A DNA stretch of 64,000 nt from Flaccisagitta enflata (lineage: Eukaryota). Below, one piece after another: positions 17,650 through 63,580 of the stretch (position 1 is the first letter of the stretch; the number at the start of each line of letters is the position of its first letter). Below the pieces are notes generated by a model, which saw nothing but the letters and a program-made list of their open reading frames with translations, did no database searches and was not told the DNA's origin. The translations under genes and the position numbers were made by a program. The DNA lies in NCBI GenBank assembly GCA_965153355.1, contig OZ231126.1:30752001-30816000 (forward strand). The letters run 5' to 3'.

Positions 17650-18253
17650 CTCTCTTTCTTTTCCTTTTTTTCTTATCTTCTAGAAGTAAAAATCTTTTTT
17701 TGTGCATTTGGTCTATATCCGATCTGAAAAGTTCAAAGAAAGGGAAAAGCAAGTTGAACTCCAAGTCCTGATCACCAGGAAAAAAAAGTTATTTATCTTT
17801 CGGAAAATTAACAAAACTGATCGACTTGAAAAGTATAAAGAACGGTAGAAAGGCCCGATCCGCGGGCGGTTGGGCAGGAGCAGTGATGTAACAAACCAAT
17901 AATCAGCTAACCAAAAAGTGTGGCAGACAGAAGGCCGGACCAAAGGACAAACGGACGGACCGACGAAGCAACATTTACAAAGACGCGTACTCAACAAAAA
18001 AGAAAGTAATCACGTTTGCGCTCACATCTGCAACTCATTTTGTTGATTCTCCTTCGAACTCCTTCAATTAAAAAAGACCAAACTGTCTGCAGACACGCCT
18101 GAAATTCATCGGTGTCTGTCCGCCTGAATGCCTGACTGTCTGCCTATCAGTCTTTCTGTTTGTTTGTCTGTCAGTCTGCCTTAATTGGATGCACCTGTAA
18201 TTCGATTTTTGTGTTTTATTGGGTTACGTATGGATGGTCGATTGTTGGTTGTA

Positions 18254-18575: not shown

Positions 18576-18765
18576 AAACAAGGCCGGATACACGGCTACC
18601 GAAGTCGCGTGCGGATGGGCAGGGGCCATATTTGAGGTCACTAGACCATTTGGGCAGGAGCAGTGAAGTCCAAAAATAAAAATCATAAAAAAAGTGACCA
18701 ACAGACCGACCGACCGACCGACCGACACAACGGGGTGTAGAGTCGCGTGCACGCGACTAAAAAAG
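18576..18765 (-). mobile_element. short HINE-like element
   Basis: AACAAGGCCGGATACACGGC ... (GACC)n ... AGTCGCGTGCACGCGACTAAAA. Confidence 0.75.
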
Positions 18766-32972: not shown

Positions 32973-33277
32973 GAGATGGTGGTGGCGGTGGTGGCGGAGA
33001 TGGTGGTGGCGGTGGTGGCGGTGTGTGTCTTTTCCTCTCTCTTCCGTTTTTTTTTTATTTTCATTTTAAATCACTTGAACTCCTCTGTGACAACGTAAAA
33101 TGTGGAATAAATAACACACTCTGTTCATTTAAAAACTCATCAAACCGGATAAAACAGTCTCCAACGCTGCCCCTCTGCAGAGACAGAGATAGAGCTCTGT
33201 CTCCAAGCAAGAGTATACTCAAACAGAGCACCTGCTCTTTTCTGTCAGGATTGTTTACAAATGGATATCTTCGATCC

Positions 33278-33512
33278 TTTTTTAGTTGCGGAAACGCAAC
33301 TCTATAAGAGGCCTTGTCCGTTCATCCGTCATCTGTCAGTCCGTCCGTCTGTCGGTCCGTTGGTCCGTAATGCACGAGTCAAAAAGTGGAAAAACGAGCG
33401 TTTTAGGTGTTTTTTTTATACATGTGTTAGTGGGGGGCATGGGGAGTGGATGGGGGTTGGATGCCCCCGCCCACCCGTCCGCAACGATATTGTGACCCCG
33501 CATCACTTGTTT
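33278..33512 (+). mobile_element. HINE-like element
   Basis: AGTTGCGGAAACGCAACT hairpin ... CCGCAACGATATTGTGACCCCGCATCACTTGTT; similar to 51181-51378. Confidence 0.7.
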
Positions 33513-34959
33513 GGGGTCGTCTTGTGTGACATAGTCAAACAAAAGCATAAAATTGAAAATTAAATCATGTCAATTTTCTATCATTCCCAGAACAGAATGT
33601 AAACAAGTTTTGTGTTCCAATGAAGAAAAACAAGGCCGGATACACGGCAATACAGTCGCGGACGATTTGGCAGGAGCACACTATGGCGCCGAACCAGCAC
33701 AGTATTATACAGGGCACAGAAGGTCAAAATTGGAGATAAAAAAAACGCCAAACCTATTCTTTAGTCTATATGCCTCATTTCAACCTGCCATAGGATCCTA
33801 TCTCGACCGGAGGTAGGTGCCCAGACTCTGGCTCTGGGAGCTGAGATGGCCAATTTAGTGAAAATTCAAAAATGAAAAAAAAATATGAAATAATCATTGG
33901 AGATGAAGTATATTGGTTAGTATGGAAGGTACCCATCATAATTTCTGATCATTTTTGGCATTTGGGGGCTCAGAGGGGTAGTAAAAATTGAGTTGTGAGG
34001 CTCACATCTCGGAAATCCTTCTAGCCTTTTCCTGGCTAAATGTAAACAATCGAAAAACTAGCTTAGAGCGTTTTTGCGCTTACCGTGTTCTGACTAAAAA
34101 AAGTGGGAGATGAAGATTTTCTTCACTCATTTTTTGTCTGTTATGTCTGGTGACAGTTGCGAATGAATCTATCATGTTAGAATTGTTTAAATACATAGAA
34201 TTCATCATTTCAAGATTCTCATGTATAAGAATTAGATCAAAAGTAAATTATAAACATCATGAAGGTCAAATCGCGTGACGAGTAACAGCGTAAGTATATG
34301 CGAGCAACATTTGATTCTACACAGGTGAAATAAACTCGAGAAAGTGAGTAGCCAAAAAAATTGTAACAGGGAAAATTTCCTTGTGCGTAATGGTGAACGG
34401 ACAGTTCGTGGTTTAAAGCGGCTTTAACAGCACTGGTTAGTATAAGAATTCGTCCTCTCCAACATCTGCAAATTCTGGTAGATCATCTCGATCTTCCAAA
34501 GGCAATGCATCGAGATCTCCTTCCAACTGATCTTCCTCACCTAAAGAGTGGAATGATGCAACATTGCAATGTCAGCGCGTAATTGACTTGGTAACCGGTA
34601 AATCAGATGGCTAGAAAGACAGGAATATAAACAATGTACAAGATCCTTAGTATCACCTGTATTGGTTCATTTGAAAACCATTTCTAAATTCATCCACGCA
34701 GCACAAAGCATTGTTTCCTAAACGTTGTTCCTGCCCAACTGTTCCCATTTATTGCCGTTTTTTTCTTACTTCGTATGATTCTCCGGTCATCACTATGGAA
34801 ATTGTTCCTGAACTCAGGGCTCTCGATTCATAAGACATCGTAATCGTTACGGCGGTTGCAACTTCCTTCTTTGTAATGTTTGACGTACACAGTTTCGCCG
34901 TCGTGAATTCCTTCCAGGACATTGACGCGACCCCCGCGCGCTTCTCTTGCCACCTAAAA

Positions 34960-35057
<98 letters not shown>

Positions 35058-35304
35058 TAGACAGACAAACAGGCTGAATTAGCTAGTATACAAGAGGTAG
35101 TGAAGCTGATAATTGAGCGAGTTTTTGATTGTTGGAATTGGTGGAAGTGGGAATGAAAAGAAAAAAAAGTTGATAACGCAGAGAAATACCTCGTTCAATT
35201 TTATTCCTATCAGCGAAAGCTGCCATTATTGGTAGTTATTTTAATTGTGGGTATCTCAAATTCTTTTGAAAGCTTTATATAAAAAGTGACATTCTTGTAA
35301 GAAA

Positions 35305-35441
35305 AAAACAAGGCCGGATACACGGCAGGACAGTTGCGGATGGTTGGGCAGGGGCATTTATACAAAAACCGCTCGTCATTCAAAATAGATGAACGGACCG
35401 CCACAAGGTGTATACGTGTATAATCTGTCCGCGACTAAAAA
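35305..35441 (-). mobile_element. short HINE-like element in a transposase intron
   Basis: AACAAGGCCGGATACACGGC ... GTCCGCGACTAAAA. Confidence 0.65.
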
Positions 35442-35949
35442 TGAATATTGATTACTAACCACGTGAATTTGAGAACATTCTTTGTTTAGCTCTTTTTCAT
35501 GGGCTTCAACGTGACTGGGCGCCGGAAATTGCCAAATTTTGTTCAACGCTGAGTAGACTCTGTCGGGAACTCGATTCTTGTCTTTCCATGATGACGCGTT
35601 CTCCACTTGACGTCTTTCTCCCGGATTGAGCTCGGCGTAGGTTTGTGGTTTTTCGGCTTAAACCTTCAGTTGACAGCCATCTCCATCACGGAGTGTAAGA
35701 GTCTCCAGGCGAAAACCTCTCGCTTCGCCGTAGTGGTTGATTTCGTTAACAAGACGTTCACGGTACGACGCTTTTGTTTTCTCAGCACCACCTTTCCCCA
35801 TTTCCGTAAGCATCTTCCGTTCAAGTACTTTCTGGCGTGACTTCTCTTTACGATTTAAACGATCATTCTCGGCTCTCAACGTGTCTAGAATGTGATGCAA
35901 AAGGAGGAAAAAACCTGACTGTCCTGAATAACTTTGCTTCAGATTTTTC

Positions 35950-36017
<68 letters not shown>

Positions 36018-36342
36018 TTTCTTCCTTTCTTTCTTTCAGTCTGTGTTTGTCAATTAAATCAATTTTGACGGATCATGGGCCAAGTCATTTTGCCTGGCAA
36101 TTTTCACAAGCATGGGGAACTAACAGACCAACAGTCCGGGCCTCAGAGGAAATTATGAAAAAGCGCCAAAAAAAAGAAGTTTTACCGGGAGTGTTCCTTT
36201 CTTGTCGACGGTGCGCTCAGCGACGACAACGTCAACGTCGGGTGCAGATTCCAAAACCGCAACTTCTTTACTGATGACGATTTCAATGTAAGGTGCGGGT
36301 TCGACGACGGCATCTTCCGCGATGACAACTTCAACGTGAGGC

Positions 36343-36856
36343 TTGGGTGCTTCACATAGCAAAAGTTGGGAGTATCTCTCACCCTACTGGGAGAATATGG
36401 AGGAACAAAAATCATGAAGATGTCTATTTTCTTTTTTTTCAAAATTCGTTCATCTTCCGTTTTTGTTTTAGCCTTAAAGTTTCCACAGATTTCCCAGAAT
36501 TCAGCATAATCCTGTGTAGTTTTGGTACTAAAAGGGCAACAATTTATTTCAGAAAATTATGATATTTGTGAAAATAAACTAAAATTTCAGATCATAAGCT
36601 ATGAAAGAGCTTATGAACAGGCAGACCAACAATTCTTTGAAGAGCAGAAATTAGTACAAGCTAATTTAAAGAATGTCAGTAATTGTTTTATCCCTCTGCC
36701 TTATGCAAATTAGGTCTTAAAAAACAATTTTTTAAAAAACAGAAGATGAACAATTTATGATAAAAGAAAAATGATATGGGTCCTAAAATTGACCACTCCA
36801 TATTAAGTAAAGAGGGTGAAAAGAAATAACTAACTTTTGCTATGTGAAGCACCCAA
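36343..36856. mobile_element. Mutator-like MITE (9-bp TSD), copy 1
   Basis: TIR TTGGGTGCTTCACATAGCAAAAGTT perfect at both ends; TSD ACGTGAGGC/ATGTGAGGT. Confidence 0.8.
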
Positions 36857-36956
36857 ATGTGAGGTTTGGGGTCGTCAATGGCAATTTTGATGTGAGACGC
36901 AGGGTAGACAACCGCATCTTCTTCGTCAATGACAAGTTCGACATGAGACATGGGGT

Positions 36957-39260
36957 TTGGGTGCTTCACAAAGCAAAAGTTCGGAGTATCCCTCTACCCT
37001 ACTTGGGTAATGTGAGGGAGCAAAAATCTTGAAGATAACCATTTTTCTTTTTTTAAATTTCCATTATCCTCCGTTTTTGTTATGGATCTAAAGTTTCTAC
37101 AGATTTACCAGAATTCAGTAAAATCTTATGTAATTTTGTTACAAAAAAATAATTATTCATTTTAGAAAATCACAATTTTTATAAAAACAAACTAAAATAT
37201 CAAAACATAAGCTATGGAAGAACTATGGAAAAAGCAGATTAGCAATTCAATGAAGAGTAGAATTTTGTAAAAGCTAATTTAAAGAATATCAGTATACTGT
37301 TTTATGCCACTGCATTATGCAAATTAGGTCCTTAAAATCAATATTTTAAAAACGGAAGATGAATGATTTTTAATAAACAAGGCCAACACCTATAAGTCGC
37401 GTGCGAGACTTACTTACATAATCGCCTGATTATTTAAGTACGTTATTTCCTGTAATGATGATAATGACTATAATTACCCATTCACCTATAATTGCCTATA
37501 ATGACCTATGATTACCCATAATTACCTATGATTACCTATAATTACCCATAATCAAATAATGACCTATAAGTACCTATAAAGACCTGTGATTACCTATAAT
37601 TACATATGGACCAATAATTACCTATAATGAGGTATGATTACCCAAAATTACCGACAATTACCTACAATAACATAATGATCTATAATTACCTATAATGACC
37701 TATGATTACCTATAGTTACCTATAATTACCCATAATTAAATAATGACCTATAAGTACCTATAAAGACCTATGATTACCTATAATTACATATGGACCAATA
37801 ATCACCTATTATGACCTATGATTACCCATAACTACCCATAACTACCTTTAAAAACATAATGACCTTTAATGGCCTATGATTACCTATATTTAACTGTAAT
37901 TGCATAATGACCTATAATTACCTATAATTACTTATGATTAGCTATAATTACCTTAAATTGAATATTGACCTATAATTACCTATAATTGTCTATTTACATA
38001 ATTACCTATAATGACCTATGATTACCTATAATTACCTATTATGACATAATGACCTATAATTACCTTTAATGACCTTTGATTACCTATGATTACCCATAAT
38101 TTCATAATGACCTATGATTACCTATAATTATCTAAAATGACCTATAATTTCCTATTATTACATAATGACCTATAATTACCTATAATGATCTATAATTACC
38201 TTTAATTACCTATGATTATCTATTATTACATAATGACCTATAATTACCAATAATGACCTATAATGACCTATAATGACCTATATTGACCTTATAATGACCT
38301 ATAATGACCTATGATTATATAATGACCTATAATTACCTGTAATTACCTATAATTACCTATAATCACCTATAATTACCTATAATTACCTATGATTACATAC
38401 TGACCTATGATTACCAATAATGACCTATAATTGCATAATAACCTATAATTACCTATAATGACCTATAATTACCTATAATTACATAATGACCTATAATTAC
38501 CTATAATTACCTACAATGACCTATGATTACCTATAATGACCTATATTACCTGTAATTGCATAGTGACCTTTAATGACCTATAATTACCTATGATTACCCA
38601 AAATTGCATAATGACCTATAATTACCTATAATTATGTAAATAAAAAGTGAAATGACTATATTGACTAAAATGACTGAGAATGACTTAGAATGACTAAAAA
38701 TGACTTAAAATGATGTATAATGACTTATAATGACATAAAATGACTTCGAATGACTTAAAATGACTTAAAATGATGAAAAGGATTATATTGACTAAAATGA
38801 CAATAATGACTTAAAATAACTTGGAATGACTTAAAATGCCTTTAAATCACTTGAAATGACTTAAAATCACTTTAAATGACTTAAAATAACTTTAAATGAC
38901 TTAGAATGACTTAAAATGATGAAAAGGACTATATTGACTAAAATGACAATAATGACTTAAAATGAATTAAAATGACTTAGAATGACTTAGAATGACTTAG
39001 AATGACTTAAAATGACTTAGAATGACTTAGAATGACTTAAAATGACTAAAAATGACTTAAAGAAATAAAATTTATAAAAAAAGTAAAGTGTGACCGACCG
39101 ACCAACCGACCGACCGACCGACCGACCGACCGACGGACAAAGCGGGTTGTAGAGTCGCGTGCACGCGACTAAAAATGGTAAAGGTCCTAAAATTAGCAAC
39201 TCCGTATTAGGTAGAGAGGGTGAAAAGAAGTAACCAACTTTTGCTATGTGATGCACTCAA
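36957..39260. mobile_element. Mutator-like MITE, copy 2, with nested HINE
   Basis: same TIR; TSD ACATGGGGT/ACGTGGGGT. Confidence 0.8.
37375..39175 (-). mobile_element. HINE-like element carrying ATAATTACCT/AATGACTTA satellite arrays
   Basis: ends are the reverse complement of those of 22491-23890; the central array is different. Confidence 0.8.
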
Positions 39261-39437
39261 ACGTGGGGTTGACGACTGCATCGTCTTCGTCGACGATGCT
39301 CTCAGCTAAGGCGCAAGTATGATATTCTTCAGATACCGAGTACGTAAGATCTGATGCGAATTGTGAGGAGGTCAAAATTTGTCCTATTATCTCTGCTACA
39401 GTTCAAGAGAGATTCAGAGGGAGAGAATAAGGACAGA

Positions 39438-39487
<50 letters not shown>

Positions 39488-40270
39488 TATTTCCGTTTGC
39501 AAAATTAGTGTCGTAGAGAGATGGACCAATGGATGGATGGTCAAGGGATGAGCTAACTTATGGAGGGTTGGACTGAAGAACATTTAAAACCTCTTATGCA
39601 ATGCAGGGAGCTATTTAGATCCAACTATTGGCCTTATTTTCGCAGGAAGAAATAATGCGTCAACTGCGAATGTTGTTCTTAACAATATCTTTTTAACCTA
39701 CCGACGACTTCACTTGTATTCGCGTAACTGTTGTTATTTTTCATCACTGCAACAACACTCGCGCAGATTTTTTCTGCTCGACTGAGAAAAAAAATCGTAA
39801 AGAAAGAAAGAATTTTCAGTTGCTCTCTGAGCCAAGAGCTCGATAACTGCCGATTTGACGCTCAACTTCTTTGGAGGTGTTTAGTTTCAGATGCTTTTGC
39901 TTAAAATAGAGGAGGTAAGTAATCTTATTTATTTTTTAAGCACTGATCAAAAAAACATTAAAACCATATGATTGTTGAAATATGTAGAGGAGACTATGAG
40001 GTTTCATAATCAGGTTTCCACATATTGGTACAACTCCTAGTTTTTGCATAATACTGTAAAACGTATTTTTTAAAAATCAATGAGCAACTTCCTATTATAA
40101 TCCTATGGATGGAGGAAGAGCAAAAATTTCAGTTTTTTTTTTTAAGCTATGATTACCAAAACATTAAGAACATTTTCTATGGCAATTATTACTCCTTAGT
40201 GATGGTCTATCAAGGACTGGTTTTCATATAATGGTACACCTCACTAATTTGGAGAAATAGCACTTTGCTA

Positions 40271-41054
40271 CAGGGAATACCGCGCCAAATGAAACAAAAG
40301 AAAACGACATAACTTTGCTTCTAGAGATAGAAGATCAATTTTGTAAAAAGATCCAGAGAGTTCTTAAAAAACGATTTTTTACTGTTCAGTTCAGAGTCTA
40401 TGAGGAAGAACTACTTAGTGCTCACATCTTTTTAAAAAACTACAGCTTTTTTCAATGTTCTAAAGGAAAATTGTGGATTTTTAACGGTTTTGAACATGAA
40501 ATTAGTGGTTCCCATTAAAATATAGAGCAAAAATTGTAGGATTTTACCAAACTTGATTCAAATTCAATTTAAATTTTAGATATGCTCACTTTGTTTTAAA
40601 AATTAGACATTTGGACTGATGAAGACAACTCAGAGAATCCATCTTCTTTGAGCAACATATTGGAAGTGGTGAAAAAAACCAGTTTTCTTGATTTGAAATG
40701 TCCCCATAGTACCTGTTCAGACAATTTCATAAAAAAATTTGAATTGTCTTTAATATGAGCCCAATCTCATGTATTTAGCTCAATTCGTTTGGAAATGATA
40801 TTGAATTAAAGATGAAAGGTTTAGCTGCTTTGAATGAGAGAAATTTGATAAAATGATTTTTTTTCAAAATGAATGTTTTTAAAACACATTCTATGGTCTA
40901 TGGAGGGTCAAAACCATTAGGAGGTTGGAATGTATCAGAACAGGACAAAATCGTTTTTACAGTGCTTTCTAACATTTTTTTCAGAGTTGAAATATCTTTT
41001 TCCAATGCAGAATTATGTCGTTTTCTTTTGTTTCTTTTGGCGGGGTATTCCCTG
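40271..41054. mobile_element. mariner-type MITE
   Basis: TA-CAGGGAATACCGCGCCAAATGAAACAAAAGAAAACGACATAA ... TTATGTCGTTTTCTTTTGTTTCTTTTGGCGGGGTATTCCCTG-TA. Confidence 0.85.
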
Positions 41055-42184
41055 TATTTTACCAACTCTCACAAAGAGGATTCTAGATCAGCTCTATTGT
41101 AAATTTTTCTCTTTAAGCCACCTTCTTTTGATATGTTGTTTATTATTCAAACATATTCTTGTTGATGGTGGATAAAAAGAATGTACATTGTATGACTAGG
41201 TGGTGGTAGTGGTGGTGATGTGGGGGGAGGAGGAAGAGGAGGAGGAGGCGGCGGTAGAGGGAGTAATTTTGCATATTGATATGATAGACCAAGTTTATTT
41301 GCATATTCTTGTTGATAGTGGGCAAGATGAATGTGCAGTGTATGACAAGGTGGTGGTGGTGGAACACATGTAGAGTAAAAGGAGGAGGAGGAGGAGGAGG
41401 AGAAGAAGGCGGTTGATGGAAAAAATGTGCAAATTGATAAGGTAGAATAAGATCACTATCACATCTTTTGTAAAAAGTAGGTAAGAAGAATATGCTGTGT
41501 ATGACAAGGTGGTGGTTGAGGTGGTGGTGGTGAAGGAGGAGAGGGCAGCGGTTATGGGAAAAATCATGTAAACTGATGACTTTTGACTAGATTCTTGTTG
41601 ATAGTGCGTAAGAAGATTGAGCTATGTATGACAAGGGGGTGGTGGTAGTGGTGGAGCTGTAGGGGAGGAGGAGGAGTAGGAGAGGGCGGCGATAAAAGGA
41701 AAAATTGCACATATTTTTGTTGCACATATCATATTCTTGTTGATAGTGGGTAAGCAGAATGTGCATTCTAAAACTTGGTGGAGGTGGTGGAGGAGGAGAA
41801 GGAGGAGAAGGAGGAGGAGGAGTAAGAGGTGGTTGAGCGTGGTTGAGGGAAATATTGCCAATGGACCAACTGACAGACCAACAAGCAGTTGCATGCATAC
41901 AAGCAGTCTCCCACATTATTAGTCTTGAGCCATGTTTAGAATCCCTCTCCTACATCCCTCCCCAACTCAAGAGAGCCACAGTGAAGCCTCAGGCACATGT
42001 ACAAACATCAAACACTGTAGTCATTTTGAAAATTGAATTGCTGTGGCCATGTGGCCATGTATTAGTAGGGAGAACAAGGCCATATACAAGGTAGCATTAA
42101 TCAATGGGTGGGCAGGAATAGATATCCTGATAAAGCGACTTTGTGATGGACAGACTGACAAACAGACTGACAAACGGACAAATT

Positions 42185-42875
42185 TGGGGCCCTTTAAGGC
42201 CCATGGAGCCCGCAAATTGACATGATATTGCTTGCCAGGGCTAGCTTGGCCCAAGCAAGGTTGAACACAAGCATGAACATATAATTTTTTTTAAAATGGG
42301 CATAAAAGCTTATTTCCTTCAAAATCGCTATTTTTGGACCAATTTTGGGCCCAAAGGGCCTTCTGGGACTTGTAAAACTCCAAGATATTGCTTGTCAGGG
42401 CTAGCTTGACCCAAGCAAGGTTGTACATAGGCATAAAGATATCAATTGACTTTAGAAATTGAGAAAAAAAGCTTATTTTCCTAAAAATAACCATTTTTTG
42501 GCCATTTTTTGGCCATTTTTGGGCTCGTAGGGCCCTCTAGGGCTCATAAAGCTCTGCAATATTGCTTACCAGGACTAGCTTGACCCAAGCAAGGTAGTAC
42601 GTAGGCATGAAGATATCATTTTAGTCTAAGAAATGGGCAAAAAAACTTATTTTCCTCAAAATCGCCATTAATGGGCCATTTTTGGGCCTGTAGAGTCCTG
42701 CGGAGCCTGTAAAATGCCATGAAATTGCTTGCCAGGGTTAGCTGGACCCGAGCAAGGATGTACATAGGCTCAAAGATAACATTTAAGTATGAAAAATGGG
42801 CAAAAAAGCTCATTTTCCTCAAAATTGACATTTTGGGACTCATAGGGCCCTCTGGGGCCCGTAAAGCTGGATATT
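42185..42875. repeat. four roughly 165-175 bp subterminal tandem repeats of the CACTATG element
   Basis: ATTGCTTGCCAGGGCTAGCTTGACCCAAGCAAGG-like core near 42227, 42387, 42561 and 42724. Confidence 0.8.
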
Positions 42876-43545
42876 TTTTCTTGTTTTAGCTTCTAGTTCT
42901 AACACACTCCTAGGATTGTGTTGTACAAAAAAAAAAAGTGACCAAAATAATTTTGTGCTGGTATCGCCCAAAACGCGCATAGTGGAGCAGTGATGCGAAA
43001 ACCGATCGCGATTCAGAAATGTGACGGGCCGACGGACCGACGGACCGACGGACGGACCGACGGACGGACCGACGGACGGACCGACGGACGGACTGATACG
43101 GCAAGGTGTAGAGTCACGTGTCCGCGACTAAAAATATAACTTGGAGATTGAGAGGAAATGGGATTGAACAAGCAAAGGACGTTTGTCATATTAACACATC
43201 TTGTTTGTTCCTGTACACTGTACAGGCCCAAATACGCCGCTTGTTGTTTCGAAAACTTATTGAACATAAACAGATTGTGAGTGCTTTCAGAATGTCCCGC
43301 CTTGCTTTCCGTATTGTCTTTTATTGTCTCTGCAAAAGTAATCCTATTCTCGACGAATCTCGTTCTTAAGTTACTCAAATACTTTTCTTACTCGTTGTTT
43401 CTCCCCCGTAAAATACGTTTCATTCTTAGCTCGGGAAAGGAGAATCAAGACAGACCTGGTCCACAGCCAACATCTGTCGCGTGTTATTGTCATGAGAAAA
43501 ATTGAGTGAATCGCAGAAATGGTAAAAACATGTGGACGGACGGAC

Positions 43546-44053: not shown

Positions 44054-44499
44054 TAATCGCCATCGCGCATTCTCTCACAGACTGTCAGACTCATCTACAC
44101 AATCAACGTTTTCTAGTCAGTTCAATGACAAACGTTGGTTTACATATATGCGAACTCATCGACACATTTACTCACCAGCTAATCGTTGCAATTTTGCAAA
44201 CGAGAATTGAATACATGACCAACAAGTGACGCGGGGTCACAATATCGTTGCGGACGGGTGGGCAGGGGCATCCAAATTTGGATGACGCGAAATCGTCTGA
44301 AATACTGATTTCTGAGCATTAGGACCCCTCCCCGGCCATATTACAGCCCCGACAATCTACTGATTGCCCCTGCCCACCCGCATTACTGCCCCTGCCCATC
44401 CGCCAGCGACTACTTATTGGCCGTGTATCCGGCCTTGTTGCTGTAGTAAAATATTTTGAAATAAACCAACAGTATGTCTTTCTCTTGCTTGCTTGATTC

Positions 44500-48867: not shown

Positions 48868-49050
48868 CAACAAGGCCGGGTACACGGCCATCAGTCGAGG
48901 ACGGTGGGCAGGGACGGAAATGCAATTGTCCGCAACTAAAAATGTTCTAAAACACTCACTTCCTCACTTTTCGACTCGTGTCCACGGACCAACGGACCGA
49001 CCGACGGACAGACAAAGCCTCTTATAGAGTTGCGTATCCGCAACTAAAAA
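48868..49050 (-). mobile_element. intronic HINE-like element
   Basis: AACAAGGCCGGGTACACGGC ... AGAGTTGCGTATCCGCAACTAAAAA. Confidence 0.65.
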
Positions 49051-49422: not shown

Positions 49423-49689
49423 GTAAGAGTTTGCGATAAATGAATGAATGAATGAATGAATGAATGAATGAATGAATGAATGAATGAATGTATAAAGGAA
49501 AGAAGGAAGGAAGGAAGAGAGGAAGAAAGGAAGGAAGGAAGGAAGGAAGGAAGGAAGGAAGGAAGGAAGGAAGGAAGGAAGGAAGGAGGAAGGAAGAAAG
49601 GAAGGAAGGAAGGAAGCCGAAAGGAAGGAATCAATAAATGAACAGGAAGTGAAAAAGCCGTTGGCTGGATGAGTTGACGAATGACGAGC

Positions 49690-49756
<67 letters not shown>

Positions 49757-49784
49757 ATTTGTACATACACAACCCCAACCACAG

Positions 49785-50727
49785 GAAGCTTCCTTAGACG
49801 TGAAAAGCTTCTTCGGCTTCGAGTCCACCGTGGAGAAAATCGCCGTCAAGACATATTCCACGGAAATCGCGCGAGCCAAAGAAACTCTGATGATCTTCTT
49901 GAAGCAGTTAGAAGAAGAAGGCGTCAATCACGTGGAAAAATGGACGCCACCGGGCAAGAGAGAGCCCATGTGGGGCCCACCGGAAGCCGAAATAGCGCCA
50001 ACGGCGTGGGGAGATGAGGAGGGGGTTGAGAAGGGTGAAGGAGAGCAGGATGACGCGGACGAGGTGAAGTATAAGGATACAGGAGATGCAACAACGGTCG
50101 TAAAAGAAACCACCGAATCAGTACAGCAACAATCAGCCCCCAATAACAATAACAACATCAACGTCGCTACCAAAGAATCCTCATCGTCTAACAGCAATAA
50201 CAAAAGCAATAACAAAAACAATAACAACAACAGTAAAAAACTAGAAACGGACTACATCGAGCGTTGCCTCGGCTCGTTGAACGATTCTCAAGCGAGCGCT
50301 TTGGTGCAGTTAAAAGACCGATTGCAACGACGTCATCAGGGCAAAATGCCGAGTGACGCGCACGCGTTACGCTTCCTCCGCGCTCGGGAATTCAACGTCG
50401 ACAAAGCGGAAGACATGATCCTGAAGACGCTGTTGTGGCGCAAAGAATTCAGCGTCGACTCGTTGATTCACTCTTACGTGGCGCCGGAGTTGGTCGTCAA
50501 CCATTTGCCGGGCGTTTGGTTTCGCCACGACGTCGACGGAAGACCCGTGTATCACTTCCGGTTAGGCAGCGCCGATGTGAAAGGCGTCATGAAAGCGTCT
50601 GGAGGCGACGAGCCGTTGCTGCGTCATTTGGCGTGGTTGATCGAGGAAGGGATGAGGCGGTGTTTGGAGGCGACCGCAGAGCGAGGAGCGCCCGTGTCAA
50701 CGGTCACTTGCGTGCTAGATTTGGAAG
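49785..50727 (+). CDS. SEC14L1: SEC14L1-like exon 4 (end of PRELI, linker, CRAL-TRIO N-terminus and start of SEC14)
   Basis: EASLDVKSFFGFESTVEKIA...LRFLRAREFNVDKA...VLDLE G|GTAGGT. Confidence 0.92.
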
Positions 50728-50990
50728 GTAGGTTTTTTGTTTCAATATCTGTTGTTAGTGCACAAGTGGTTGTGTCTCTCGTGAAAAATTTCTGTTAGTC
50801 TTATATTCATGGATACTTCTGTTTTGTTTTGTTTTGCTCTGTTTTGTTTTGTTTTGTTTTGTTTTGTTTTGTTTTGTTTTGTTTTGTTTTGTTTTGTTTT
50901 GTTTTGTTTTGTTTTGTTTTGTTTTGTTCTGTTTTGTTTGTTTGTCGTTTTGTTGTTTTGTTTTGTTTTGTTTTGTTTTGTTTTGTTTTG

Positions 50991-51021
<31 letters not shown>

Positions 51022-51057
51022 CTTTGTTTTGTTTCTTTGGTTTTTTCTTTCTTATTC

Positions 51058-51136
<79 letters not shown>

Positions 51137-51180
51137 CTCTTTCTTTCTTTCTTTCTCTCTGTGCTTAATTTGTATGTTCT

Positions 51181-51378
51181 TCTTAGTTGCGGACACGCAA
51201 CTCTATACGAGGCTTTGTCCGTCCGTCGGTTGGTCCGTGGACATGGGTCGAAAAGTAAGGAAACGAGTGTTTTAGATGCTTTTTGTGCATGTGAGTTGGG
51301 GACTTAGGGTATGGATAGGGGTTGGATGCCCCTGCCCACCCATCCGCAACGATATTTTGACCCCGCGTCACTTGTTTG
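51181..51378 (+). mobile_element. intronic HINE-like element
   Basis: AGTTGCGGACACGCAACT ... GACCCCGCGTCACTTGTT. Confidence 0.7.
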
Positions 51379-51386
51379 TTTGATAG

Positions 51387-51962
<576 letters not shown>

Positions 51963-52148
51963 TGATGCGCAGATAGAGAGAGAAGTAGACGAATAGACGG
52001 ACAAATGGACAGACCGATAATTCTACGGACAAACAGAAAGATAGACAGCTGACGGGAGTCATAGGTTGACAGATTGCTAGATAGATACACAGATAGAAAC
52101 ATAGATTAACTCATTGATAGATAGGTACAGATGGATAGGTAGATAAGT

Positions 52149-52179
<31 letters not shown>

Positions 52180-52316
52180 CAGAGAGACAGAGACAGAGAG
52201 GGAGAGAGACAGAGACAGAGAGATACTCAGACCGACAGACACCGAGAAACAAACACTGACATCCCAGTATATATACTTCTGATTCTCCTCATTTATTTCC
52301 TCTTGCTTATCAACAG

Positions 52317-53329
52317 GCAAACATCTCGACGACGAAAGCTTCGTACCTGAATTTCTCGGCGGCACCGGCGTCGTCGACATCCCCGCCGGCGGCATCATCG
52401 CCAAGGAAGTCGTGCTGCAGATGCAGCAACAGCAGCAACAACAGCAGACTGACGGCGTTGAAGGCGGCGGCGGTGACGAGGAGAATCTGTTGTTTCCCGC
52501 GACCGGATTTTACTCAGTTTACGATCGAGTAACTTTAGTCAAAGGATTTCCTCACGAGGTCGCCCACGTCCTGATCGATGACGATGACGATAAAGACGAC
52601 GATAATGACGATGATGGCGATAACGATGGTGATAACAGCGGCGATGATGAAAAGAAAAAAGCCGCCCCAACTATGAAACGCGCCTCCGTTCTCACTTGGG
52701 ATTTCGACGTCATTAAAGGCGATGTCAGTTTCGTTGTTTATTTCGCGCCGAAACAAAACAATAAATTGGAAACAGGAAGAGCGAGAGGAAGTATTATTCC
52801 CGGTAGAGAGAATGCCAACGAGGATGACGAAGAGGATACAGCCGCGTTGGGATGCGGGTCGATTATCGGCAGTTACGGAGAGATGATGTTGGAGAATCGA
52901 AACGTGGGATCACCCGGAGAAGGATCCAAACAAATCATATCCAAATTAAGGCGCGGGAGCCTCGGTGGTGGTGGAGGCGGTGGTGGAGGCGGTGGTGGCG
53001 GCGATGATGTTAATGCGGGTAGTTGCGCCTGCGCTGTTCTCGCCGGTTACGTCGGCGTCGCCACCGAGTGGAGGCGTCTCGAAGAAACGGCGCGAATCTA
53101 CCGCGAGCGTGACAGTATTCAAGGAAGTTTGGAGGTCACCGAACCCGGATGTTACGTCCTCCAGTGGGAAAATTACGAAAAACAAAAGACGCCTTTGGGC
53201 CCTTTTGAATTCCCGGCGTTGGCCGCGGCTGCCAAAGCCAAAGTCATGACTTTCACGGAACTCATTCCAGCCTCGAAGGAAATCGAAGGATCCATTTCTA
53301 GTTTCTCGCTCACCAAACTCACGGTCTAG
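52317..53329 (+). CDS. SEC14L1: SEC14L1-like exon 6 (GOLD domain, stop)
   Basis: VPEFLGG...KGFPHEV...LTWDFDV...SIQGS...PGCYVLQW...TAG. Confidence 0.92.
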
Positions 53330-57472: not shown

Positions 57473-59106
57473 TTTTCTCTGATCGACTGAAGCGTTTAAA
57501 GATGGATTCCCCGAAACCCGAACCCACTTCCAATTGGATGACTTTAATTCGTCAAGCCGTGTCTCGAGAATGCGCCGCGCACGATGTCGAGGAATTGGCG
57601 GAAATGGAAACCTGCCCCGAAGACTGGATGCACTTCGTCCACGAAAACATGGACTGGAGTCCGTTTGAAAAGTCCGTCCAGTTGGTTTGGGACGAATGGT
57701 ATGATCATCAGGGCGTCTCTGAGGCGACTTCCATGAATCCCCGTAAAGACGATTTCCATCAACTTGGCCTTCCGCCGCAAATCAACTACAAAGTCAAAAT
57801 CACGGAAAAGGCCGCGATTCAGCCGCGAAAGTCGAGCGTCCGCGGCCGGTACATGGTCGCCAGCGAGGAAATCCCCGCCGGCAGCGTCGTGCTGCAGGAA
57901 AAGCCCTTCGCCTTCGTCCTCAACGGCGAGTTTAAACTGACTCATTGCAGTAACTGTTTCTGTCGACTCGAAGGCGACGATTTTAAAGTCTGCGACAAAT
58001 GCGAGGAAACTTACTTTTGTTCGGACAAATGCGCTCGTCAAGGACTGCAGAGTTTTCATCGTTACGAATGCCCGTTTATGAAAGGCTTACGGAGTTTGAA
58101 GCTGTATCCGTTGGCTTTCCGGATGTTTCTCCACGGATGGACCAACGCCATGCAGATTTATTTGGCCTCCAAGATGATTTCGTTGCAGGCTTTCCTCGAT
58201 CGCGGCCACAGTCTTCCGTCGCCGTCGGAGTTGGATCTGCTCTCCAACTGGCACGTCATTCCCGGCGAGCATTGTCTCAAACACGCCGTCATCGCCAAAC
58301 TCTTCGTCGAAATCCTCAAAGGCGGCGGCCTGTTCCGCGGGCTGCAGAATTACGTCCGCACGGCGGCGAAGGAGAAAGACGGCGTTGATTTGAGTCTGGA
58401 CGACGAATTGTTAAACGAAGACTTGGAACATTTCCTCGGCACGTATCTCTTGGACAATATTCAACGCGTCAAATTCAACTCTTTCGAAATGTCCGAATTC
58501 GTCATGTTGAGGAAAAACCCGATTCACACTTCGGAACCGCTGACGGACAATCAGGATCGACTTTACCGCGTGATCAGCGATTACAACACCACCGGCGCCG
58601 CGACTTACTTGAATACCAGTCAATTTAACCACAGTTGCAAACCCAACTGCAATTTCTATTTCATCAACAACGAGATTGTGGTGAGATCCAACCAGAAAAT
58701 CCCGGCGGGCGGGGAGATTAAAATCAGCTACGGACCGAATGTGATGAACACCAAATCGAAGAAGAAGAGAAAGCGACAACTGGCGGAAAGCTACGGATTC
58801 AATTGTCTCTGCGAACAATGCAACGGGAAATCCATCCGGTCGCAGATCGTGGAAGAAGAGGAGAGAGATAGAAAGATCGAGGCGGGAGTTTGGGACGAGG
58901 AGGAAGAGGAGGAGGCGGCGGCGAGGGCGGCGGCGGAGGAGGAGGAGGCGGCCGCGAGGGAGGAGAATGAGGAAGAGGATGATTTCGAGGATTTGCTGAA
59001 TGACGAACCGATGATTAATCGGAATAAGGAAGCCAGAATCGTGGAAGGGCAAGTTTGTTACAAATTGGCGGAAGCGAATTCGGCGTTTGAGGTCAGTGGA
59101 GGATGA
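57473..59106 (+). CDS. SMYD-family (SMYD4-like) split-SET/MYND lysine methyltransferase, main exon
   Basis: GRYMVASEEIPAG (SET-N), CSNC..CDKC..FCSDKC..HRYEC (MYND), FNHSCKPN..EIKISYG (SET-C), FNCLCEQC (post-SET), acidic tail. Confidence 0.93.
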
Positions 59107-61755: not shown

Positions 61756-63580
61756 TCACAGTTGAGAAGGGCAAAAACCAAATCTTTTTTTTTTTACATT
61801 TTTAGTCAAGGTTACTAAAGGCCTGATTTCAAGTATGTGTCTCCTTTCAAAGTCATCCAAAACTTCATCATTGGGATAGATCCTATATGTTTTTCCTTGA
61901 TCATCCTTTGCTCTTGTTTTCAGAGCAGTGAGAGCTTGCACACAAATGCTATCTTGTTGCTGATTGTAAGATTGCACAGATCCAAGGTTCCAGCCATCTT
62001 CTTGCAATGTGATAACAAATTCTTCTTCCTGTAATGGCCAATTGAAGTCTTTTAGAGGCTCCTCCACAGGTACCCTAGACCTCTTTGCTTGCTTATTGGC
62101 AGACTGAGGGGATGTTTCTAGTGAAAGCGTTAAACGCGTTCTGATCGCGTTTTAAGCCAAACGCGTTTTTAGTAGTGGGACCATTGAAAAAAAGTTTCAT
62201 GCCTTCCAAAAATCGAACTCCCAAACCCAAAAATGAGAATTAAGTGACTTACCAGTTCGCCACAAAGCGCTGCACAATCGTGGGGTATGGGATTGGACTT
62301 ATTTCAAAAGTGATTGGCAAGTTATTGCCCAAATGTAGTTTGAGACCGGTGCAAGATTTGCTTGTTCCAAAGATCGCTCTAGTTGCAAAGCAAAAAGGCA
62401 TTCAAATTTTAAAAAAGTCTATACCGGGGTGGCGAACATGCAGAGAGCGAGACTGCAAATTAAAAGTTGCAAGATCGAATCCTGCAATCCCCGAGACTTT
62501 TTTTCAATGGCGTTACTGCCTAAAACGCGTTATTCTTGAAATGCGAATGAAACGCGTTTCAGGCTTTCACTAGAAACATCCCCTAAGTACCTACTGACTC
62601 AGAAGCCACATAGACATCTTCTACAGTAATGACCTCTTGGTCAGATGGGTCAACTGTGTGCAAAGCAAGCAGATTTTCATACATCTGTTTGGCTGTGATA
62701 TTGCACTGTTTGAAATAAACAAAATCATTGGGCATTTCTGAAAACAAAGCCTTTTTCAACTTAACTTCTCTGCTCAGAATAGCCAACTGATCTGCCTCAC
62801 TCAGCTTTTTGATTCTGTCATAGCACTTTTTAACACATAAAGAAATCAGTAAATTTTTGGCCAAATCTCTTGTCAGCTTGTCTGCTTCACTGTCTGTCAA
62901 GGCCAACTTTGCTTTCATGATCTCTTTCTGAGACTTTGAAAAACCTGCTTCAATTTGATGAACTTCTTTCTGTTTGGCCTTTAGCTCCTTGTCCTTCAAC
63001 ATGTTGACTCCCTCATTACCAAAGGCAAGATCTAAACTTGTTTTTAGCACAAGTCTGTCACTGATAGCTTGGAAAGCAGAGCCTCCCTTGCTTCTTAACT
63101 GTTGAGAAAAATGTCCAAAATAATTTTCTCCAATTTTGTTGTCCACAGGGATGGTCTTAAGCTGTTCTTCAGTGAAGATTTCTGACAGAGGCTTTAAGTG
63201 TGTCTCTCCCTGGCTGCTTTCTTTGCTGAGTATTCCAGATATTCTGGACCAAATTCATACTGAATTCTTCGTTGCCTTGACAGAGTTGCAGCAAGCTGTT
63301 TCATCAAGACTTGCATTGCAGTTTATTGACATCACTGCTCAAGATGCTTGCAAAAGACTCCATCCATTCTTGTTTGTACTTTCTTCCAAATCATCCTCAA
63401 GAGCTGGAAGAGCATGCCTCTCAACTGAGCTGAATTTTAAACCTGGGATTGGTTCCATCATTTGTTTGTACAAATTTTGAAGGATACTTCGAAGAGCCAA
63501 ATGAGTTGGTCAAGGTTGCTGATCCAACAGAATACCAAGAAGTGGCTCCATCAAATGATAGCCAACCTCTACAGTTCATT
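61756..63580 (-). pseudogene. C-terminal half of a transposase-like gene with stops, split by a MITE
   Basis: GYHLMEPLL...LSRQRRIQYEFG...IPVDNKIGENYFGHFSQQLRSKGG; removing 62108-62583 and one TSD fuses ORFs 62583-63146 and 61756-62067 in frame. Confidence 0.65.
62108..62583. mobile_element. PIF/Harbinger-type MITE
   Basis: TIR GGGGATGTTTCTAGTGAAAG / CTTTCACTAGAAACATCCCC; 3-bp TSD TGA/TAA. Confidence 0.85.

Follow-up and report, generated by a model that had tools for sequence, protein, structure and literature searches.

Are the unequal ends of a RAG/Transib-like transposon an original design, and thus a parallel to the 12/23 rule, or a later alteration of symmetric ends? The question is raised by a 9.3-kb element in a 64,000-nucleotide stretch of Flaccisagitta enflata DNA (contig OZ231126.1, positions 30,752,001 to 30,816,000). 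This whole stretch is referred to as the window, and all coordinates below are window positions. A sequence-only reading of the window had described an element with a CACTATG heptamer at each end, separated from a nonamer-like block by 13 bp on one side and 21 bp on the other, and had suggested that the difference is native to the family. We consider it likely that the element, which is non-autonomous and decayed, belongs to the Transib superfamily of DNA transposons, that is, to the RAG1 lineage in the wide sense, and to a family whose ancestral ends were probably symmetric and whose short left end belongs to a derived subfamily.

The inserted segment, 33679-42984, is 9,306 bp long, has 36% G+C, and by direct reading lies between the two copies of a perfect 5-bp target-site duplication (TSD), GAGCA. 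The left junction reads ...GGCAG-GAGCA-CACTATG... (33674-33685) and the right junction ...CATAGTG-GAGCA-GTGATG... (42978-42995). The empty site was rebuilt by slicing the element out of the window, and the product was compared with the window by BLAST. Three matches cross the junction, at 35304-35385, 44379-44439, and 17861-17965. In an alignment of five paralogues, three run uninterrupted across the junction with a single GAGCA or GGGCA, and the other two diverge there. Contigs from four public sequencing runs, X1 to X4, were aligned to the left end of the element (window 33150-34950). Host-repeat contigs whose match ends exactly at 33678 number 350, 354, 90, and 128 in the respective runs. 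Beyond this position these contigs read GTAATGCAAAAACCGCTCG..., identical at 24 of 30 letters, counted by eye, to the window after 42989. The flanks are thus the two halves of one short interspersed repeat, and a single insertion with a 5-bp duplication follows. Paralogues and run contigs together confirm what the sequence-only reading had drawn from the flanks: 33679-42984 is a single insertion, and its target was a short interspersed repeat of very high abundance.

Further copies of this host repeat are found in the window at 17861-17965, 18576-18763, 44379-44439, and 48869-49050, besides the split copy (33272-33678 plus 42990-43135). In the tail of the repeat, a conserved ...GTAGAGTCGCGTGCACGCGACTAAAAA box comes after a (GACC/GACG)n tract, and the contig depths of the repeat sum to millions in the runs of the host. 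Rfam and tRNA scans of the window gave no match, the host repeat included.

The two ends of the element can be read in more than one register. In that of the sequence-only reading, which direct reading bears out, the left end is CACTATG-GCGCCGAACCAGC-ACAGTATTA, with a spacer of 13 nt, and the right end, as reverse complement, is CACTATG-CGCGTTTTGGGCGATACCAGC-ACAAAATTA, with a spacer of 21 nt. Divided by conserved blocks, the left end is CACTATG-GCGCCGA-ACCAGCACAGTATTATACAGGGCAC and the right end (reverse complement) CACTATG-CGCGTTTTGGGCGAT-ACCAGCACAAAATTATTTTGGTCAC. The heptamers are identical, the inner 25-nt blocks match at 19 of 25 positions, and the linker that separates them measures 7 nt at the left end and 15 nt at the right. 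Kapitonov and Jurka divide such ends into a heptamer, a spacer, and an A/T-rich 9-mer; read in this way, the right end becomes 7-23-AAAATTATT, and the left becomes 7-15-AGTATTATA. The spacer pair is therefore 13/21, 7/15, or 15/23, depending on the register, with a difference of 8 bp in each. Alignment of the left end with the right end suggests that more than one small event lies behind this net difference. The 15-mer ACCAGCACARWATTA has exact matches in the 64 kb only at the two ends of the element; with up to two mismatches there are three matches, where 0.64 are expected. The heptamer pattern alone is not significant in the window (4 matches against 3.19 expected).

The structure of the ends and the length of the TSD point to the Transib superfamily. 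As of 2005, no superfamily of eukaryotic DNA transposons other than Transib was known to make 5-bp TSDs, and Transib ends comprise the heptamer CACAATG, 23 bp of variable spacer, and a AAAAAAATC 9-mer (PMC1131882). Here, GAGCA stands on both sides, and the empty sites and the run-contig consensus have one copy. The CAC...GTG termini are formed by CACTATG at both ends, which matches the consensus heptamer at six of seven positions. The right end, CACTATG-23-AAAATTATT, fits the Transib layout and agrees with AAAAAAATC at six of nine positions; the block of the left end is 8 bp closer to the heptamer. The 5-bp TSD, the CAC...GTG termini, and the bipartite inverted ends are hallmarks of the Transib/RAG1 lineage, and to this extent the lineage named by the sequence-only reading holds.

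Other classes of element fit less well. CACTA/EnSpm transposons have CACTA termini and a 3-bp TSD. The termini of the present element do start with CACTA, but its duplication is 5 bp long, not 3, and an origin in CACTA/EnSpm (CMC) was rejected. A long terminal repeat element was set aside as there are no terminal direct repeats, and a composite of two independent elements was discarded since the whole 9.3 kb is bracketed by one TSD and one split host repeat. A full-text literature search, with Repbase and the supplements of papers outside it, found no published Transib family with CACTATG and a GC-rich linker. For Transib together with CACTATG, the search returned PMC8289069 only.

The interior of the element has no coding capacity. 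Its longest stop-to-stop open reading frame (ORF) encodes 154 amino acids of low-complexity simple repeats. The element was also read in six frames through stops, with an X for each stop, and scanned against Pfam. No transposase gene or remnant appeared in these frames (best E-value 0.01, all matches far below cut-off), and so the transposase gene that the sequence-only reading had placed downstream of the 21-bp end is absent. It follows that this copy is non-autonomous and decayed. A search for heptamer plus block found no second pair of ends inside the element. The interior does contain nested repeats, among them a TA-flanked 784-bp miniature inverted-repeat transposable element (MITE), which looks Tc1/mariner-like.

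The 10-bp tandem arrays of the interior have a counterpart elsewhere in the window. A similar array lies at 1654-1954, 36 kb from the one at 37461-38634. In both places the unit is CTATAATTAC-like, with higher-order periods of 48 and 58 bp, and these arrays look like a dispersed satellite.

The history of the left end can be approached through other copies. BLAST of both terminal regions against the 64-kb window matched only the regions themselves and internal tandem repeats; that is, the window holds no further copy. The element's left end, 33679-33813, was translated (45 amino acids) and searched in public protein libraries, which include ORFs of short metagenome contigs. Four proteins were found in an exhaustive representative search and two in the "longer" length band of the library; the "near" length band gave no match. 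The proteins P0010 and P0011, which represent one locus, read ...ALLGNT-LWRQTSTVLYRAQKVKIGEKKTPNLFFSLYAS..., where the window in the same frame reads ...GRST-LWRRTSTVLYRAQKVKIG. Heptamer and inner block are as many codons apart as in the window, so that the linker at this locus is short; the same short spacing is evident in LWRQ-TSTV of these proteins against LWRR-TSTV of the window.

P0006 differs. It reads ...RPVP-LLAFWAIPAQYDTGHRRSKLEKKKTPNLFFSLYAS..., with a long linker ahead of a left-type interior. Its first part matches LCAFWAIPAQ of the right end of the window (tblastn, residues 37-52 to 42985-42938), and the remainder, residues 41-84, matches 33682-33813 in the left interior (82%). 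Through ACCAGCACA, the long-linker end of P0006 and the right end of the window's element correspond at nearly every base. The protein P0009 (RGSTVGRTSTVLYRAQ...) can be read with either a short or a long linker. On the N-terminal side, the flanks of P0006, P0009, and P0010 resemble neither of the two flanks of the present element, with scores at or near the shuffle median and below the 95% point (for P0010, a score of 20, equal to the median). Therefore, these three represent different loci. The independent left-type ends, this copy included, are thus four, a small sample known from translations: two are short, one is long (P0006), and one is ambiguous (P0009). Among these four, spacer length is not conserved as an end-specific property, as a 12/23-type arrangement would have it.

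Two further matches contain no end of a copy. P0008 is an unrelated repeat protein. P0007 has the internal module only, twice in tandem. This module, 33730-33813 (translated KKTPNLFFSLYAS.QPAI.SYLDR), is found in P0007, an unrelated metagenome ORF, at 48-49% identity, and could be an independent mobile or repeated unit. Searches by pattern gave chance matches or none. CACTATG-N{5,25}-ACCAGCACANNATTA was found at 12 loci in metagenome contigs, about the number expected, and none of the 12 has further similarity to the element or an inverted partner. Exact and IUPAC pattern scans of viral contigs gave no match, and scans of prokaryote genome contigs gave none and then one, a chance match in a Bacteroidales metagenome-assembled genome with no heptamer.

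The sequencing-run contigs add information on abundance and age. In run X1, the summed contig depth is 16,784-54,932 across three bins of 33699-33881, and contigs identical to the window have a depth of about 89-134; summed contig depth, as the tool itself cautions, is not a copy number. The left subterminal region of about 200 bp is high-copy, and the depth is only few-fold past 34126. Over about 133-137 aligned positions, the listed family contigs (three records) show 14-21 differences from this copy, from which it follows that this copy is old. The match of these contigs ends at 33687/33688, with 5 to 11 contig letters per record unaligned beyond this point. Given this clipping, the outermost 8-9 nt of the window are not the majority form.

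Could the element come from a RAG-like transposon of the ProtoRAG type, with RAG1L and RAG2L, and not from a classical Transib? The heptamer CACTATG is identical to TR1 of ProtoRAG (PMC8289069), the TSD is 5 bp long, and the ends are bipartite and unequal, as in ProtoRAG (27/31). We nevertheless think such an origin very unlikely. Convergent RAG1-like and RAG2-like genes characterize these transposons, and here no Pfam family scored above cut-off in the six read-through frames, which hold no RAG1L or RAG2L remnant, a result that a non-autonomous derivative could also give. Positions 8-10, after the heptamer, are GCG at the left end and CGC at the right, where RAGL-B ends are reported to have an A-rich TR2 directly after the heptamer (PMC7204232 and PMC10462144). 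The right end fits the 7-23-9 layout of Transib instead. As to the 8-bp difference, the sequence-only reading suggested that the 13/21 ends may be natively asymmetric and similar to recombination signal sequences (RSSs). On this view, taken further, the transposase would prefer or require their pairing, as a forerunner or parallel of the 12/23 rule. Part of this proposal stands. The short left end recurs at the unrelated P0010/P0011 locus and is therefore transposition-competent or at least inherited, and the present copy pairs a short end with a long one between intact TSDs. There are also precedents: ProtoRAG is reported to have a functional preference for asymmetric ends (PMC8289069), and the two ends reportedly differ in length by 9-11 bp in AanRAGL, PflRAGL-A, and some Transibs. 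The part that does not stand is the fixed design, since P0006 shows a left-type end with a long linker. Furthermore, a difference of 8 bp would shift the inner block to a different helical face, unlike one of 11 bp; the values 13/21 depend on the register; and the short/long pairing is known from this single copy. On balance, native asymmetry appears unlikely.

An explanation of the opposite kind, which the sequence-only reading had itself raised, is that the 8-bp difference is a private deletion that occurred after insertion in a decayed copy of a family with symmetric ends, so that the asymmetry has no history of mobility. The age of the copy, the stop of the family contigs at 33687/33688, and the long linker of P0006 would all agree with this. 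However, the same short spacing is present at the P0010/P0011 locus, in a flank unrelated to that of the window, and the deletion is therefore not private to this copy. An identical independent deletion is improbable, and we give little credence to this explanation. The reading that we favor is that the asymmetry is heritable, yet derived and tolerated, rather than a rule-like design. In P0006, a left-type interior is joined to a long spacer of the right-end type, which suggests that the ancestral ends were probably symmetric and that the short left end is derived; the direction of change would have been from long to short. We propose the following history. As the chemistry of the family suggests, a Transib-type DDE transposase supplied in trans would have excised the element at the CAC of each heptamer, and the excised element would have been pasted into a staggered 5-bp cut in the abundant short interspersed repeat, to give the GAGCA duplication. 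The ancestral ends of the family would have been symmetric, each with a 15-nt linker. One lineage would then have lost a net 8 bp from its left linker and founded a subfamily that kept spreading and of which this copy would be a member. After insertion, nested repeats, the MITE, and expansion of the tandem arrays would account for both growth to 9.3 kb and decay. It is tempting to go one step further and suppose that, through one 8-bp deletion, a Transib family with symmetric ends gave rise to a short/long subfamily that its transposase mobilizes at least as well as the symmetric form, or in preference to it, with both forms still coexisting in one genome. We offer this as a speculation of low probability; if true, such a subfamily would be a living example of 12/23-like asymmetry arising de novo from symmetric inverted repeats.

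Several points weigh against derived asymmetry in a Transib family. Only four independent left-type ends were compared, the present one among them. The ends of the other copies were read from protein translations, not from DNA, and the comparison covers their left-type ends. The polarity by which the long form is ancestral is drawn from the resemblance of P0006 to the right end, with the clipping of contigs at 33687/33688 as indirect evidence consistent with it, and P0006 could be a recombinant between end types. Finally, as no transposase was found, the assignment to the superfamily is drawn from end structure and TSD length. The features of the locus are listed in Table 1.

Table 1. Features of the Transib-like element and of the host repeat into which it is inserted (window positions; TIR, terminal inverted repeat).
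Feature	Position	Strand	Basis
Host repeat, left half, AACAAGGCCGGATACACGGC...GGCAGGAGCA	33629..33678	+	paralogues and run contigs read through
Left TSD copy, GAGCA	33674..33678	.	direct reading
Whole inserted element, no coding capacity	33679..42984	+	ORF list, Pfam scan
Left terminal heptamer, CACTATG	33679..33685	+	direct reading
Left linker, GCGCCGA, 7 nt	33686..33692	+	same spacing in P0010/P0011
Left subterminal region common to a high-copy family in the host species	33688..33881	+	run contigs
Left inner TIR block, ACCAGCACAGTATTATACAGGGCAC, containing the "nonamer" of the sequence-only reading	33693..33717	+	19/25 to right block
Nested host-repeat fragment	35304..35385	+	BLAST, alignment
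Two tandem arrays of 10-bp period (37461-38634 and 38650-39061)	37461..39061	.	repeat analysis
Nested host-repeat tail, (GACC)n and GTAGAGTCGCGTGCACGCGACTAAAAAT	39078..39176	+	repeat analysis
Nested 784-bp MITE, 50-nt inverted ends (92% complementary) starting CAGGGAATACC, TA on both sides	40271..41054	.	inverted-repeat analysis
Subterminal tandem repeats, 41150-41850 (unit about 150 bp) and 42173-42880 (unit 160-174 bp)	41150..42880	.	repeat analysis
Right inner TIR block, ACCAGCACAAAATTATTTTGGTCAC	42938..42962	-	direct reading
Right linker, CGCGTTTTGGGCGAT, 15 nt	42963..42977	-	same long linker before left-type interior in P0006
Right terminal heptamer, CACTATG (CATAGTG on +)	42978..42984	-	direct reading
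Right TSD copy, GAGCA	42985..42989	.	direct reading
Host repeat, right half, (GACGGACC)n tract and conserved tail	42990..43135	+	paralogues, run contigs

The window also contains a PRELI-CRAL/TRIO-GOLD (SEC14-like) gene of several exons at 49653-53329 and a single-ORF SET-MYND protein at 57502-59103, the latter with relatives in public assemblies at 86, 85, and 74% identity. The architecture of these domains points to an animal. On the minus strand at 61756-63254 there are two ORFs of 131 and 223 amino acids, with only a weak NPC1_N match (E = 0.008, below the Pfam cut-off); these ORFs could belong to a gene or to a further mobile element. The window stretch is present in runs of one organism and in marine metagenomes.

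How does the element compare with known asymmetric ends? The difference of 8 bp is about 0.76 helical turn, whereas the 12/23 rule pairs 12 ± 1 with 23 ± 1, about one turn apart, and the ends are thus not the roughly one-turn and two-turn pair that the sequence-only reading had supposed. Nor is inequality new. Transib5 of D. melanogaster and Transib2_AG and TransibN1-3_AG of A. gambiae have RSS12- and RSS23-like ends (PMC1131882), and asymmetric Transib ends are stated again in PMC8355894. ProtoRAG is reported to have a 27/31 asymmetry (PMC8289069), PflRAGL-A a 10-bp spacer asymmetry (PMC10462144), and AanRAGL spacers of 4/13, with Subgroup I Transibs all asymmetric (PMC9435367). Unequal ends have been on record for the RAG1/Transib lineage since 2005, so the element does not reopen the 12/23 question. 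We see in it an unremarkable fossil, carried by a marine eukaryote, of a transposon superfamily that is already known. Its value is modest: left ends with two different spacer lengths seem to be present within one family, and short/long together with long/long ends would make a natural substrate series for the tolerance of Transib transposase to block spacing.

Of the known systems that come closest, Transib5, Transib2_AG, and TransibN1-3_AG share with the present element the 5-bp TSD, termini with a CAC heptamer, a second inner block, unequal 5′ and 3′ ends, and the existence of non-autonomous members. In contrast to these, the two ends here differ in length by 8 bp (15/23 when counted as in those families) rather than 11, the heptamer is CACTATG rather than CACAATG, and the family has left ends of both lengths and no known transposase. 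With ProtoRAG of amphioxus, the element has in common the terminal heptamer, the 5-bp TSD, and bipartite, unequal ends; it differs in that RAG1L and RAG2L genes are missing, no A-rich TR2 follows the heptamer, the linkers are much shorter, and their lengths differ by 8 bp instead of 4 bp. PflRAGL-A and AanRAGL resemble it in possessing two conserved end elements and, from one end to the other, a difference of about 8-10 bp in the spacer between these elements. These two are autonomous, encode RAG1L and RAG2L, and have a conserved asymmetry, whereas the present element is a copy without genes whose asymmetry varies among the copies of its family.

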